Part shown: one piece after another, positions 1,035 through 63,129 of the stretch
Numbering within the stretch: position 1 is the stretch's first letter
Layout of the letters: the number at the start of each line of letters is the position of its first letter
DNA from: Eledone cirrhosa
Taxonomy: Eukaryota
Length of the DNA: 64,000 bases
Assembly: GCA_964016885.1 (NCBI GenBank)
Contig: OZ024742.1
Coordinates: forward strand, 99,014,001 to 99,078,000
Reading direction: 5' to 3'
The notes under the pieces: model-generated
What the model was told of the DNA's origin: nothing
Seen by the model: only the letters and a program-made list of their open reading frames with translations
The model's database searches: none
Program-made: the position numbers and the translations under genes

Positions 1035-2164
1035 AATAACTAGAAATTGATTAACATATAGATAAACATGAAAAATCACAGGAGATAATTTTTACAAGTG
1101 TGTAACCACACATACCTAAGTAACTAGATAAAGTTGAGCAGAACTTCAAAAATAGATATGATTAATCTTTCCTGTATATATTCCATTAAAGAAATATATT
1201 TCACCAATTAATCGGATGATAAACCACGGAAGTGGAGACTTGGATTTTCAACAAGGAAGAAGTTCCAGCGAACCGTATTTACACTTCAAGTTCAAATCAG
1301 TGACTGGCCAGCACCACTTGTTGCATTTACTAGAAATACACACATCATACTAGCTTCGTCCCAGTGGCGTGAATAGGGTTATGGACAACTAGAAACAGCA
1401 GTCGAGTCCTTTCAACAGAGTTAGCCCTACAATTAAGGAGCCGTATTTATATATCTATATCCAAAATTGAGATAAATCAAATGAATTTAATCTAAATCAA
1501 AGTTATGGGTGTCATGCCAGAAAGACATGCGCCATATCACCCGCAAAATAAACTCTAAGATTCTAACGAGTAGGTCCGAGCATTTTATAATAACTAGAAA
1601 TTGATTAACATATAAATAAACATGAATAATCACAGGACATAATTTTTACAAATGTGTAACCACACATAGCTAGGTAGGTAACTAAATAAAGTTGAGCAGA
1701 ACTTCAAAAATAGATACCTTATAATATGATTAATATTCCCTGTATATATTTCATTAAAGAAATATATTTCACCAATTAATCGGATGGTAAACCACGTCTG
1801 AAAATCCTAGTCTCCACTTCCGTGGTTTACCATCCGATTAATTGGTGAAATATATTTCTTTAATGAAATATATACAGGGAAGATTAATCATATTATAAGG
1901 TATCTATTTTTGAAGTTCTGCTCAACTTTATTTAGTTACCTACCTAGCTATGTGTGGTTACACATTTGTAAAAATTATCTCCTGTGATTATTCATGTTTA
2001 TTTATATGTTAATCAATTTCTAGTTATTATAAAATGCTCGGACCTACTCGTTAGAATCTTAGAGCTTATTTTGCGGGTGATATGGCGCATGTCTTTCTGG
2101 CATGACACCCATAATTTTGATTTAGATTAAATTCATTTGACTTATCTTGATTTTGGATATAGAT
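1035..2164. mobile_element. Family B non-coding element: 554 bp partial tandem plus inverted arm (Penelope-like architecture)
   Basis: taactagaaattg at 1037 and 1591; ~1815-2164 is the reverse complement of ~1451-1796; degenerate core CTGAAAA...GAAATATATTTC at ~1798-1858; (TA)n on both sides. Confidence 0.75.
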
Positions 2165-2377
2165 GTATATACATACACACACACACACATATATATATAT
2201 ATATATATATATATATATATATATATATATAAATATATATATATATATATGTATATATATATATATATGTATATATATATATATATATATATATATATAT
2301 ATATATATATATATATGTATATATATGTATATATATGTATATACATATACATATATATATATATATATATATATACA

Positions 2378-3133
2378 TATGCCATACGGTATATACATAT
2401 ACATACATATATACATGTGCATACAGGTACACATACATATATGCACGTATCAGTTTAGCGGCGCTAACGTCGCTTTGTTCGTTTGTAAACAAACTGAACA
2501 GCCTGAATTTATGCCATACGGTGTTAAGGCAACCACGTCACCTTTTTGTTCAACACTGACACAGGAACGATGTACTAGTTTCAAGCTTGTTAGCTATCAT
2601 CAGCACCGTTTACCCATCTGCCAGATAGTTGAACGTTCGAAAGTATATACTTTCCTTATGAAAATTAACGGCTGAGCAGCCTAATTTGCATATTGAGTGA
2701 GTTAAATCGGTCAGGCATACCGAAAACGATAAGTTGAAACAAAATGAAAACGAAATTTCATTTCTCACTCTTAGTATGGCACTTACTTAAATGTAAGTAT
2801 GCATGTATACGTACATACATATATGTATACAGACGTACAGTAGCATGCACATATATATATATATACATACATATATACATACATATATACATGTGCATAC
2901 AGGTACACATACATATATGCACGTATCAGTTTAGCGGCGCTAACGTCGCTTTGTTCGTTTGTAAACAAACTGAACAGCCTGAATTTATGCCATACGGTGT
3001 TAAGGCAACCACGTCACCTTTTTGTTCAACACTGACACAGGAACGATGTACTAGTTTCAAGCTTGTTAGCTATCATCAGCACCGTTTACCCATCTGCCAG
3101 ATAGTTGAACGTTTGAAAGTATATACTTTCCTT
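2378..3133 (-). mobile_element. Family C retrozyme-like element, 476 bp head-to-tail unit with two HHRs
   Basis: ~2400-2655 is repeated at ~2876-3133; each repeat carries an HHR on the minus strand. Confidence 0.8.
2568..2608 (-). ncRNA. Type I hammerhead ribozyme (minimal, palindromic stem III); identical copy at 3044-3084
   Basis: Minus strand: cggtg CTGATGA t-agct-aaca-agct-t GAAA ctag TA catcg; stem I cggtg/catcg, ACTAGT palindrome. Confidence 0.85.
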
Positions 3134-59597: not shown

Positions 59598-60153
59598 TAA
59601 GTAAGACAAACATGTTAAATTTGGCTTCGTTTATTAGAAATTCTCTGGTATATATATTTCAGTGACAGCTATCATTGGCATGGCATTACGAATTATTGTA
59701 GAAAAAACAGGTAAACATGGTGTTGAAATGTGTTCCTCTATGTCAATTCATCGATATGTCCAGCTCCTGTGAGTGTTGTTAGTCCTCGAAGAACTGGAAT
59801 CATATCCAGTTGATTCTATATGATTCCAGTTCCTCGGAGGACTAACAACACACCCAGGAGCTGGACATATCGATGAATTGACACTGGAATCCATTTCAAC
59901 ACCATGTTTACCTGTTTATTAATTCGTACATTAATTTGTACATTAATTCGTACTGCCTGATGAGGTCACAGCCAATAATAGCTGTAACTGAAATATATAT
60001 AGCAGAGAATTTATAATAAACGAAGCCAAATTTAACATGTTTGACTTACTTATTTTACATTACTCCGGAGTAAACAAACCAGCCTGCCTACTTCGTCAAG
60101 TGCTCCAACCTGCTTACTGAGGTGTCGGTAAACAACCAACACATACTCAAAAT
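59598..60153. mobile_element. Fold-back HHR element related to family A, with nested palindrome at 59706-59916; short copy at ~36203-36300
   Basis: HHR 59953-60005: ctgc CTGATGA ggtc-acagc...gctgt-aact GAAA tatata TA gcag; 59598-59680 is inverted relative to ~59965-60052. Confidence 0.8.
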
Positions 60154-63129
60154 GTATATATACATATACATATATATATATATATATATATATATATATA
60201 TATATATATATTTGTTTTGCAAGGTTTTTGATATGAAATCGTGTGTCGAAACAAATATTGTTATACTTGGGGAGGGTCACATTATTGTAATAATATTGTC
60301 AGAAATAACAGAACACACTCACTGTTTCGTTGGTTTTCGCTTCTGTTTCTTTTATATCTCCATAGTTAATTTATTTGGCAATCAATGTTTATCATTGATT
60401 GACCAACGGTTAAAAATATAGATATGAATATATATACATATAGTCTAACAAAGTTGTTTCGTTGCACATCTACAACATCATCAGTGGGTTTATTATGTTT
60501 CCTCCCATTGTATTGTATTGTATATATCAACTACTCGAATTTCACCACTCATCCCTAACGGAAGAATTCTATTTGCCTCTTCTTTAAAAGGTCACGTGTT
60601 TCTGTCACAGCTTTTGAGGATGCTGTCACTACCACGGCGAGGGCCCGTATTAACTCCGGCAGTCTCTCATAGTAAATCTTCCGTTAGTTTTAGGACTGAA
60701 CCCTAGTTATAAGAAATTTCTAATATTTAGAAAACATAGACCGGGTTCTGCATGCAGCAGTTACAATTGCATCGGCTTGTATAGAACGCGGTAATGAAAC
60801 TGTTAAAGTTATGAGCAGTATACATGATCCCACACTAAGTAATTTACCCACTGCTTAATATTTATCTGACTTGTGGATTCGTAATTACAACAAATTCAGC
60901 GAGTGGATAGCGACAGGGCTATGTCTAATCTAAATGTATAACTCATACCTAATTATATATATATATATTTATATAAATATATATATATATATATATATAT
61001 ATATATATATATATATATATATATATATATATATATATATGTATATATATATATATATATATATATATATATATATATATATATATCAAGTAAGAATATT
61101 TTCGAAACAGCGAGTTGATTTGAAATTATTAGAAATGTAAGCTATCGCCGTTTTGATATATATATATATATATATATATATATATATATATATATATATG
61201 TATATATATATATATATATATATATATATATATATATATATATATATATATATATATATATATATATATATATATATATATATATATATAAAGAAAAAGG
61301 GATGAAATCGAAAATGCAACTGAAGTCTTATTTTTAAAAAAAAATATATATATTTATTTGGTTCCTTTACCGGTTTCGCAGTTCTTCTGCTTTTCAAAAG
61401 GTGAGTTGAGATGGAGGGTCTGCGAAACCGGTAAAGGAACCAAATAAATATATATATATTTTTTTAAAAAATAAGACTTCAGTTGCATTTTCGATTTCAT
61501 CCCTTTTTCTTTATACTTCCACTCGTGTAGGACACCTCGGTTATTTTTCATTTTGTAAAAAAAACCTCACTTTCTAATATATATATATATATATATATAT
61601 ATATATATATATATATATATATATATATATATATATATATATATCCAGGAGATGTTAAGGGCAATGCGCTAGAGACGGTTGTTGTTACCATGCAACTTCT
61701 TTGTCAGTGCATATGTCAAGGTTAATTTCTTTGATCAATAAAGGGCTGATTCCACGGTGGCATTGAATAACCTGATTGTGGAGTGATTGATTTGTGCTGG
61801 GTCGACTTTAGGAATAGAGTGGATAGCGCCTAATACTTGACGGATTCGAGTCTCTGGCATTTGCCAGAGTGGCATGGGCTTTATTCGTGGTTATGTTTGA
61901 GAACTCCATAGTGTTTTCAAGTAACTAAGATGAGTTGATGAATAGCCAGTTCTAACAACTGGCGATTATCCGCTAACGGGGTTGGTTGACGATTGACTGT
62001 CCGTTGGTTGAAGCGGTTCTTCCGTCAAACAGTGTCATGTAGTTTCGCCGAATTATGATCATACGTCGAATGAGATCAATGTACCGAACTTCATATCTGA
62101 TACTGCTTCCCATGCCTTCATTCTTACCCTAGCTCGGGGATTTTTCTTTATTGAGGTTAACTCCTCAAGGGGTTTTAGTCACTTATATATATAAAAATAG
62201 GAAATGCAAAATGAAGCAAGATAACGTTATTCTTTTAATTTATTTTAGAAAATTAAATGTCACACACACACACACACATACACAGAGACACTCACACACA
62301 TACACATACACACACACACGCGCACACACAAAGACGCACACACACTTATATACTTACTATAGGACTGTCGTTGAGTCTTGCATATTCCTCCGACCTTTTA
62401 ATGTGTTTTATTTATGTCCATATATCACCCGCTTCACGAAGCATTCGTGTCTGGTGTGCCGATTTAGTCACCTACGACCCGATCGTATGATGTACTAGGT
62501 TAAATGTTACCAGTAGCACTTGAAGGGTGTGGGTGTAAATACAGCGCCCGTGTGATGGTGTTATATAGAATGAACTAAAATATCAAAGACATCCTACAAT
62601 CTATTTAGTGTAATTTAATATAAGCTAATATCTCTGGAATCAGAATCTTGAAATATTGAGGGTGATTATTTTCTTGGGAAGTTTACTAGGTAATACTCAA
62701 AACAAATTTTAAAAGCTTTTAACATTTACAAATTTCAACAATTTAACAATTTTTAACAATCTAAGATATTAAAAATGATAGGAGCGTAATCAATGTGTTT
62801 AGTGTATTTTAAACAGCTTCAACGCATTTTCAAGTATATAATATTTGTATAAGTTGACTATGTAAACTATTGTAGAGTGAATATCTATATATATATATAT
62901 ATATATATATATATATATAGTAATAATAATAAATTTGAAGACTAAAATACAAAGAGGGTTTGATAAGGATAAATATATATAAAATATATAAGAACCGTAC
63001 AGCAAATATTTATTAAAATTACAGATTAAAGTTTAAGCAAAGAATCGCTCCTTAAAGGAACCTTCTGAAACTAAAAAATCAATCTGTGAACGCAGAAGTA
63101 AATATTTCAAAAAACGTTGCAACTGGAGG

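Follow-up and report, generated by a model that had tools for sequence, protein, structure and literature searches.

The insertions of Penelope-like elements (PLEs) include inverted copies, often carry a tail of 30-40 bp at one end only and are biased towards (TA)n (Craig et al. 2021, PMC8557442); passages of the same work name the origin of these inverted repeats with a one-sided tail as an open problem. The first in vitro PLE system, that of the anole Poseidon element PAc, revealed two internal reverse transcriptase (RT) starts bounding the tail, with both target strands cut and extended, and, in the parts of that account seen here, gave no validation of the steps that follow (Frangieh et al. 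2024, PMC11167929). We report the analysis of 64,000 nucleotides (nt) of DNA from Eledone cirrhosa (NCBI GenBank assembly GCA_964016885.1, contig OZ024742.1, positions 99,014,001 to 99,078,000 of the forward strand; 'the window' refers to this whole stretch), which contains many insertions of PLEs and of their non-coding derivatives. The window belongs to a 3.0-Gb genome, has 35% GC and is (TA)n-dense. We show that each PLE family inserts with two fixed 3' ends, which are almost always paired within an insertion, and that the leaders of one PLE clade carry a short motif in duplicate, one copy just downstream of each end.

PLE insertions of the window

Throughout, S and L denote the two fixed 3' end sites that flank the one-sided tail. 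Family E is present three times: as a longer insertion at 4726..5800 (S at 4726 on the minus strand, L at 5800 on the plus strand), in which the S arm is about 1 kb long and the L arm begins inside the tail, and as two short insertions at 36618..36806 (L 36618, S 36806) and 45123..45315 (S 45123, L 45315). Family I likewise has three S+L insertions, at 28540..29289, 41283..41656 and 55983..56852, the last of which joins a tail-only L arm ending at S to an S arm of 1.4 units of a 541-bp unit. There are two insertions each of family H (13630..14715, L left and S right; 61291..61576) and of family J (a short one at 36203..36299; 59599..60150). Single representatives are a head-to-head insertion of family B at 1036..2162 (S end 1036, minus; L end 2162, plus), built from a 554-bp non-coding tandem unit; a Penelope insertion at 15240..18381 (L end 15240, S end 18381), whose 44-nt tail contains the ATG of the open reading frame (ORF) and which retains a remnant of the RT + GIY-YIG ORF at 15818-17158 on the minus strand; and an element of 2.8 kb at 23079..28374 (L end 23079, S end 28374), a non-coding tandem unit of 2804 bp with arms that are 99.7% alike. 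Further S+L insertions lie at 6221..6440 (tail 53-55 nt) and 18652..18945 (tail 82-84 nt).

All the copies for which a preliminary description of this stretch had given a pair of ends are present (three of E, three of I, two of H and two of J), and its S-L distances are close to those measured, namely about 75 against 80 nt for E, about 95 against 90 for I, 40 against 44 for Penelope and about 140 against 138 for the 2.8-kb element; H measures ~60, J ~92-100 and B ~135 nt. What it called family F, with a distance of ~55 nt, is probably the insertion at 6221..6440.

Classification of the elements

The elements are PLEs together with non-coding hammerhead derivatives. In the 15.2-kb Penelope family, the 860-aa ORF of locus L361 matches RVT_1 (5e-16) and GIY-YIG (1e-4), and this combination of an RT with GIY-YIG at the C terminus in a single ORF is that of endonuclease-bearing (EN+) PLEs; the family also has the structure of a PLE, with a tandem unit of 3127 bp, inverted S+L insertions and a one-sided tail, the L site lying inside the ORF. 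An Octopus bimaculoides protein is a homologue of the window RT at 61%. As regards the features that set Penelope/Poseidon against Neptune/Nematis, GPKF, DKG and a CxxC inside GIY-YIG are present in the Penelope protein, and the linker cysteines do not fit CX2-5CxxC. The family is young: L361 and L362 (G000:C2:200,827,553-200,837,344) carry open ORFs of ~860 aa in tandem and 95 scored copies share at least 94% amino-acid identity. A homodimer prediction for residues 1-490 of the Penelope protein gave no answer (score 0.01).

Family E, of whose ends 221 of 276 abut TA, is the 3' end of a PLE that we assign to the Hydra type because the translation of one copy, L064, matches the features given in section 11 of PMC8557442. 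This copy has YRDDGL, a CxCX5C linker, CxxC and CxH around E and N, and no CCHH; it is 5'-truncated, and its homologues show the N-terminal motifs RWR/RWK and DKT. At least three more families, like E, resemble the Hydra clade of that section in these linker and cysteine features, in their hammerhead and in their (TA)n target. Hydra-type ORF families are many and divergent (L031-L130; 29-90% identity to L064) within 1 Mb, and the clade is therefore abundant in this genome. Family H is preceded by a GIY-YIG-like C terminus (L165, read by eye). I, B and the 2.8-kb element appear to be retrozyme-like, because they consist of non-coding tandem units (541, 554 and 2804 bp) with type I hammerhead cores; among window ORFs of at least 120 aa, no RT-like one is found there.

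Two fixed end sites

We sampled 30 loci per family for six families, 60 for E and a further 40 longer loci, together with a position-chosen sample of stretches, 1 Mb in all, taken irrespective of their content. The E loci were selected by a tail query or by a 'core' query that spanned the junction; central matches to the latter were excluded from the arm-length and junction statistics and retained in the end and pairing counts. A TA-abutting 3' end was assigned to S or L if it lay no more than 6 nt from the mode. By this rule 478 of 492 such ends, in seven families genome-wide, fall on two modes (the reference for this count ran no further than L in families E, H and J, in Penelope and in the 2.8-kb element), as do 63 of 66 in the position-chosen sample, although each family offers 11-21 TA dinucleotides between -60 and L. 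The two fixed, family-specific ends of the preliminary description are thus found again in the collected copies, and the scatter over all TA dinucleotides that would have spoken against them is not seen; duplication of a single insertion is excluded too, because the copies lie on many contigs and have different junctions.

L is an internal position in all four window families that have read-through copies; a search for longer copies of E returned unrelated repeats, and E, H and J yielded no copy that reads through past L. At S, the template offers 2-4 nt of TA/AT microhomology in 7 of 7 families (p=0.004), in keeping with the 'TA sites' of the preliminary description. The term fails for the L site of Penelope, where the template continues TTTC in 20 of 20 read-through matches, and 'TA site' is therefore not a universal label.

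A family-free scan gave the same picture: 86 of 685 inter-TA segments are inverted structures, of which 75 have a one-sided extension of 30-250 nt (a few of the longest being inflated by adjacent sequence), one has an extension of 23 nt and ten are symmetric. Three of the ten stop at an internal TA run of H, as judged from the end sequence, six extend past an internal TA run or carry a tail behind it, and one (L070) is apparently truly symmetric. In the contigs of one sample, TA-type loose ends on the Penelope leader occur at S and L only, among the matches listed; the sample is possibly the assembly's own and is not counted as support.

Pairing and origin of the arms

A total of 236 head-to-head junctions was collected, 220 of them not cut by a locus edge; both ends are TA-abutting and classifiable in 161, and one or both are unclassifiable in the other 59. 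The classifiable insertions comprise 160 S+L, one S+S and no L+L (under a looser rule 189, one and one, respectively), and the lone S+S case, L239, has a right arm that extends 8 nt into the tail. Merging two pairs of segmental duplicates (L172/L173 and L371/L372) leaves 158 S+L. An independent choice of sites would give S+L in about half of the insertions (p ~1e-46, computed on 159), and the short-plus-long pairing put forward in the preliminary description is hence close to a rule. In the position-chosen sample 37 of 53 arms are in pairs; solo or interrupted insertions also occur, since the parser left the other 16 unpaired.

The upstream reach of the arms was compared in 164 pairs, among them the two segmental duplicates and 12 J pairs in which a short reference restricts the comparison. 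It is greater for the S arm in 64 pairs and for the L arm in 33, by up to 3.6 kb, and in the other 67 the two lie within 10 nt of one another, which bears out the earlier impression that the internal junction varies and that neither type of arm is always the longer one. In most pairs the arms overlap upstream of S; 16 of the 164 L arms begin at or after S-6. L arms that end within 6 nt of S make up 8 of 27 short cases, against 3.8 expected (p=0.027). A miniature inverted-repeat or terminal-inverted-repeat DNA transposon was rejected as the source of these structures, the ends being asymmetric and the junctions variable.

Both arms of an insertion derive from one source. In the eight youngest Penelope insertions the two arms differ from each other at 0 (six insertions), 1 or 4 of ~1490 nt, compared with 2-16 for separate insertions, and in seven of the eight the partner arm is the nearest sequence. 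Minor alleles of Penelope stand on both arms in 293 cases and on one in 13 (109 expected), those of E in 67 and 31 (11 expected). Several source variants are active. At the junctions themselves, 60 of the 96 cases free of insertions have microhomology of at least 2 nt, compared with ~15% of jittered joins, so that the microhomology proposed as a check by the preliminary description is indeed there; 54 of 150 junctions have inserted bases, which in part were copied from template nearby and in part arise from reference mismatch.

A duplicated motif in Hydra-type leaders

The leaders of the Hydra-type elements carry two copies of the motif RCTC...GAGY, each a few nucleotides 3' of one end, and the outer pair of the motif covaries. 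One to five tails per family were taken from the window and the family-free list, 34 altogether, and 17 of them have RCTC no more than 22 nt from S together with GAGY within 60 nt, against 0.5 in shuffles; when 95 nt are allowed, the motif follows S in 16 of 28 tail-cluster representatives (shuffles: mean 0.6, maximum 4). All 16 belong to the 20 clusters with tails of at least 62 nt, as against none of the eight with shorter tails (Fisher p=9e-4), and their outer pairs are ACTC/GAGT in nine, GCTC/GAGC in six and mismatched in one. Copy 1 stands a median of 7 nt from S (range 2-14), and the paired halves are 2-69 nt apart, a variable spacing such as an RNA loop would be expected to have. Tails with the motif follow the ORFs of four distinct Hydra-type families. 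A second copy was predicted past L and was found, out of sample, in 5 of 5 motif-bearing families with read-through, at +4, +5, +6, +9 and +14.

Within the window, copy 1 lies in family B at 2036..2065 (plus strand, 8 nt past S at 2027), in the 2.8-kb unit at 23152..23213 (minus strand, 3 nt past S, with a second instance at 25956-26017), in family I at 29211-29237 and 56322-56348, in family E at 45244-45267 and in the insertion at 18652..18945. Copy 2 lies past the read-through L site in all three retrozyme-like families: in B at 1424..1441 (minus strand, a GCTC...GGGC variant 14 nt past the site), in the 2.8-kb unit at 25856..25873 (minus strand, 9 nt past 25883) and in I at 56405-56446 (past 56400).

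The motif recurs in a metagenome set of 79 marine contig loci with Hydra-type ORFs, of which 29 have a leader of at least 150 nt. Two copies are present in 21 of these leaders (10 of 16 clusters), the second usually beginning 40-51 nt before the ATG, and under the strict pattern in 8 of 15 representatives against 0 in 150 shuffles. Among 17 alignment ends in these contigs, four enter (TA)n 0-8 nt before a copy (one of them a variant copy outside the pattern), three fall 3-4 nt before a copy and one falls inside a copy. Four metagenome leaders (L383, L396, L403 and L426) have an extra short RCTC...GAGT hairpin directly after the hammerhead. In the anole, the template letters of supplementary figure 1B of PMC11167929 appear to contain GGCCA...GAAAG...ACAAC twice, ~40 nt apart, in a reading order that is unverified, which hints at a duplicated element.

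Hammerheads and the 5' ends of the arms

Hammerhead cores are predicted by pattern, with stems read by eye, in Penelope (15408-15432, minus; 18233-18257, plus), the 2.8-kb unit (23285-23326 and 26089-26130, minus; 28265-28306, plus), I (56611-56659), J (59957-59993), H, B and E; an Rfam scan of the window listed no hammerhead among 136 matches, which were all below threshold and for the most part to microRNA models on TA tracts. The type I hammerhead-like motif of E (4738..4832, minus strand, pairing read by eye) has its predicted cut 17 nt before S and a C3-A8 core. U3-A8 takes the place of C3-G8 in B (1199-1251), in H (13774-13797, minus; 14616-14639, plus) and in the L064 copy of E.

The arms of E pile up at -57, in a T-T-A-G-T-C context that we take to resemble an initiator, and those of H at -144 to -149. 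An extra G precedes 16 of 20 E arms starting at -57 (background 22/110) and 5 of 5 H arms starting at -147 (background 9/43); it is found on S arms, L arms and solo copies and is presumably a copied cap. In the E insertion at 45123..45315, the L arm begins at the inferred transcription start A45178, with the extra G at 45177, and three insertions (L163, L273 and L302) contain two presumed cap run-offs each. An internal PLE promoter has been published for Drosophila Penelope (PMC2377424). The -57 start of E lies inside stem II of the hammerhead, and transcripts starting there would therefore be without the core. Hammerhead cut sites were rejected as the cause of the pile-ups for E, H, Penelope and the 2.8-kb unit, lying 40-100 nt away, and a splice acceptor is not favoured, the arms containing the upstream AG; the -122 peak of B is an insertion or deletion of the reference. 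No run holding RNA was among the sequencing runs listed.

Other repeats of the window

Two tail-to-tail inverted duplications are present, one at 3131-4038 (98% alike), centred on a TA array, and one flanking the 2.8-kb insertion (22936-23075 with 28367-28505, 96% alike); they possibly reflect fold-back copying at nicked (TA)n. A non-LTR (non-long terminal repeat) element with an RT (Pfam 4e-29) occupies 29500-32660, and short 3' fragments at 18459-18651 and 40090-40140 likewise end at short TA runs. The interval 12560-12920 holds a broken GIY-YIG remnant of another PLE, with a U3-A8 hammerhead-like motif, read by eye, downstream near 13353. A SINE-like (short interspersed element-like) repeat is present in multiple copies at 10117-10305 and 57341-58350, and similar sequence interrupts some PLE arms at other loci.

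Discussion

We favour, with a probability of roughly 0.6, a reading in which a single RNA has two elements that anchor RTs and is likely primed two times, each nicked strand of the (TA)n target serving once; the enzymatic steps are what we infer. A capped transcript would start in the pseudo-long terminal repeat (pLTR), and each motif would fold into a 4-bp helix and bind one RT/endonuclease molecule, which would nick one target strand and copy from just 5' of its anchor, aided by 0-4 nt of TA pairing. The L-primed RT would stall at the S primer or displace the S-primed cDNA; both cDNAs would terminate at random points or by running off the cap, after which microhomology-type repair would join them end to end. 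The abundant short palindromes would come from copies primed in the 5' leader, and long copies would require a read-through tandem unit. The preliminary description had likewise pictured two primings from opposite target strands, at internal sites and with variable joins, and this picture fits every test run, that is, the internal L site in four of four read-through families, the S+L pairing, the reach of either arm and the junction microhomology. We would amend it in one respect: the start sites are likely to be set by the duplicated motif downstream of each rather than by TA itself.

The one-sided tail and the two internal RT starts are already published (PMC11167929, PMC8557442). As in the anole PAc element, the elements studied here have two fixed internal starts that bound the tail near the ORF start, downstream of the hammerhead, and an AT-rich target, and in the anole it is uncleaved RNA that is copied; the tail is 30-40 nt in PAc, measures 44-138 nt for the families of the window and reaches ~180 nt elsewhere, and the S sites differ from those of PAc in having 2-4 nt of TA microhomology. 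Unlike the parts of the anole account seen here (PMC11167929), we examined the pairing of S and L in each insertion, the origin of the arms and the duplicated anchor. The process works like twin priming, though not in its L1 form. In the L1 passages of PMC2837659, too, the second target strand primes internally and an inverted piece is joined to the first cDNA; in L1 this is occasional and uses the poly(A) and a variable internal site, whereas here both sites are internal and fixed, the outcome is common and the arms usually overlap upstream of S, where L1 pieces are non-overlapping with an internal deletion. Like the non-LTR retrozymes of metazoans, as described in PMC7229834 and bioRxiv 10.64898/2026.07.22.740005, I, B and the 2.8-kb element are non-coding PLE-related tandem units with a type I hammerhead. 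They also carry Hydra-type anchors and the S+L ends of PLEs, ends that the retrozyme passages of those two papers do not mention, and the 2.8-kb unit exceeds the 51-972 bp reported there. The parts of PMC13282606 and PMC4245944 seen added nothing to the comparison. The leader motif is not part of the Hydra clade description in section 11 of PMC8557442, and we found no paper that reports a duplicated leader motif or applies twin priming to PLEs, in a search that left aside most subscription papers and the supplements of PMC8557442, so that an earlier mention is possible. New here, then, are the strict pairing, the arms from the same source, the longer tails, the Hydra-type family E and the duplicated anchor motif with covarying ends.

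Several observations weigh against the two-anchor reading. Because the arms of most pairs overlap upstream of S, a single RNA has to be copied twice, which demands strand displacement and departs from the non-overlapping pieces of L1 (PMC2837659), and the anole PLE protein exhibits no strand difference in start site (PMC11167929, as far as seen). The identity of the arms does not distinguish a single RNA from a pair of transcripts of the same locus, or from conversion at a later time; at L376 another insertion is nearer than the partner arm, and in H minor alleles stand on both arms in 59 cases and on one in 66, a sharing that is weakly above chance. The motif was first noticed on the same tails that were used for counting. 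It is absent from the eight short-tail clusters among the 28 and also from 4 of the 20 long-tail ones, seven of the 29 metagenome leaders have one copy and one has none, and 9 of the 17 alignment ends in the metagenome contigs have no copy nearby; nor are the covarying pairs independent events, because the lineages are related. Penelope is without this motif, having TCATTAC 2 nt after both modal ends, a weak 7-nt repeat (6.7% of random windows), and its arms form a broad pile-up at -180 to -204 with no extra G. In paired cases the extra G of the other families is possibly a base of the partner arm. Finally, minimum-energy folding around S and L found no shared fold, and the 4-bp helix was absent in most families.

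The most serious competitor, which we nevertheless consider rather unlikely, is dual priming on two RNAs from the same locus, in which an asymmetric pair of proteins would take S from one RNA and L from the other. Proposed for L1 (PMC2837659, in the part seen), it would yield overlapping arms, and two cap run-offs as in L163, L273 and L302, without strand displacement, and the identity of the arms follows if one locus dominates at a time. It needs, however, an extra rule against S+S and L+L (one and none of 161), given that both RNAs have both copies; several source variants are active, yet the partner arm is the nearest sequence in seven of the eight young insertions; and it does not explain why L arms stop at S, itself a weak effect.

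Less probable again, and in our view improbable, is a self-primed hairpin, formed by antisense RNA or by fold-back of the cDNA and then cut in a staggered manner at S and L by the endonuclease, with the motif as a DNA recognition site. Antisense self-priming has been proposed for the inverted repeats of PLEs (PMC3846280) and self-priming for the tail (PMC8557442), as read in part; it predicts identical arms, strict S+L pairing and junction palindromes, and the endonuclease of D. virilis needed the tail for recognition of a plasmid (as cited in PMC11167929). The fixed polarity of such a hairpin would make one type of arm always the longer, and a single fold-back is insufficient because either arm can reach further (S in 64 pairs, L in 33, by up to 3.6 kb). 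The extra G on S arms, L arms and solo copies, motif halves 2-69 nt apart and the internal starts on sense RNA obtained in vitro (PMC11167929, in the portion seen) also speak against it. That existing palindromes or segmental duplicates were copied whole, so that the pattern goes back to a few founders, is very improbable: two duplicate pairs were found and one E junction recurs in ~40 matches when the query spans the junction, but outside that query the junction coordinates vary widely, which largely refutes it, and the pattern is present in 28 tail clusters and in metagenome contigs.

Returning to the two-anchor reading, we tentatively extend it, at somewhat less than even odds, to the proposal that PLE integration is an obligatory, programmed form of twin priming. 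A duplicated RNA hairpin of the 5' leader would seat two telomerase-related RTs on one RNA and fix their starts a few nt 5' of each hairpin, so that both ends would be first-strand cDNA; RCTC...GAGCAC would be the RT-binding element of the Hydra clade, and retrozyme-like RNAs would be mobilised by keeping both copies. The two-anchor reading would explain the long-known shape of PLE insertions. The S+L pairing, the arms from the same source and the motif at its fixed offset make the problem of the inverted repeats experimentally addressable. Furthermore, the findings give a sequence rule for the boundaries of these elements, link the retrozyme-like repeats to a specific clade of PLEs and point to an RNA anchor beside the template in the group of RTs closest to telomerase.

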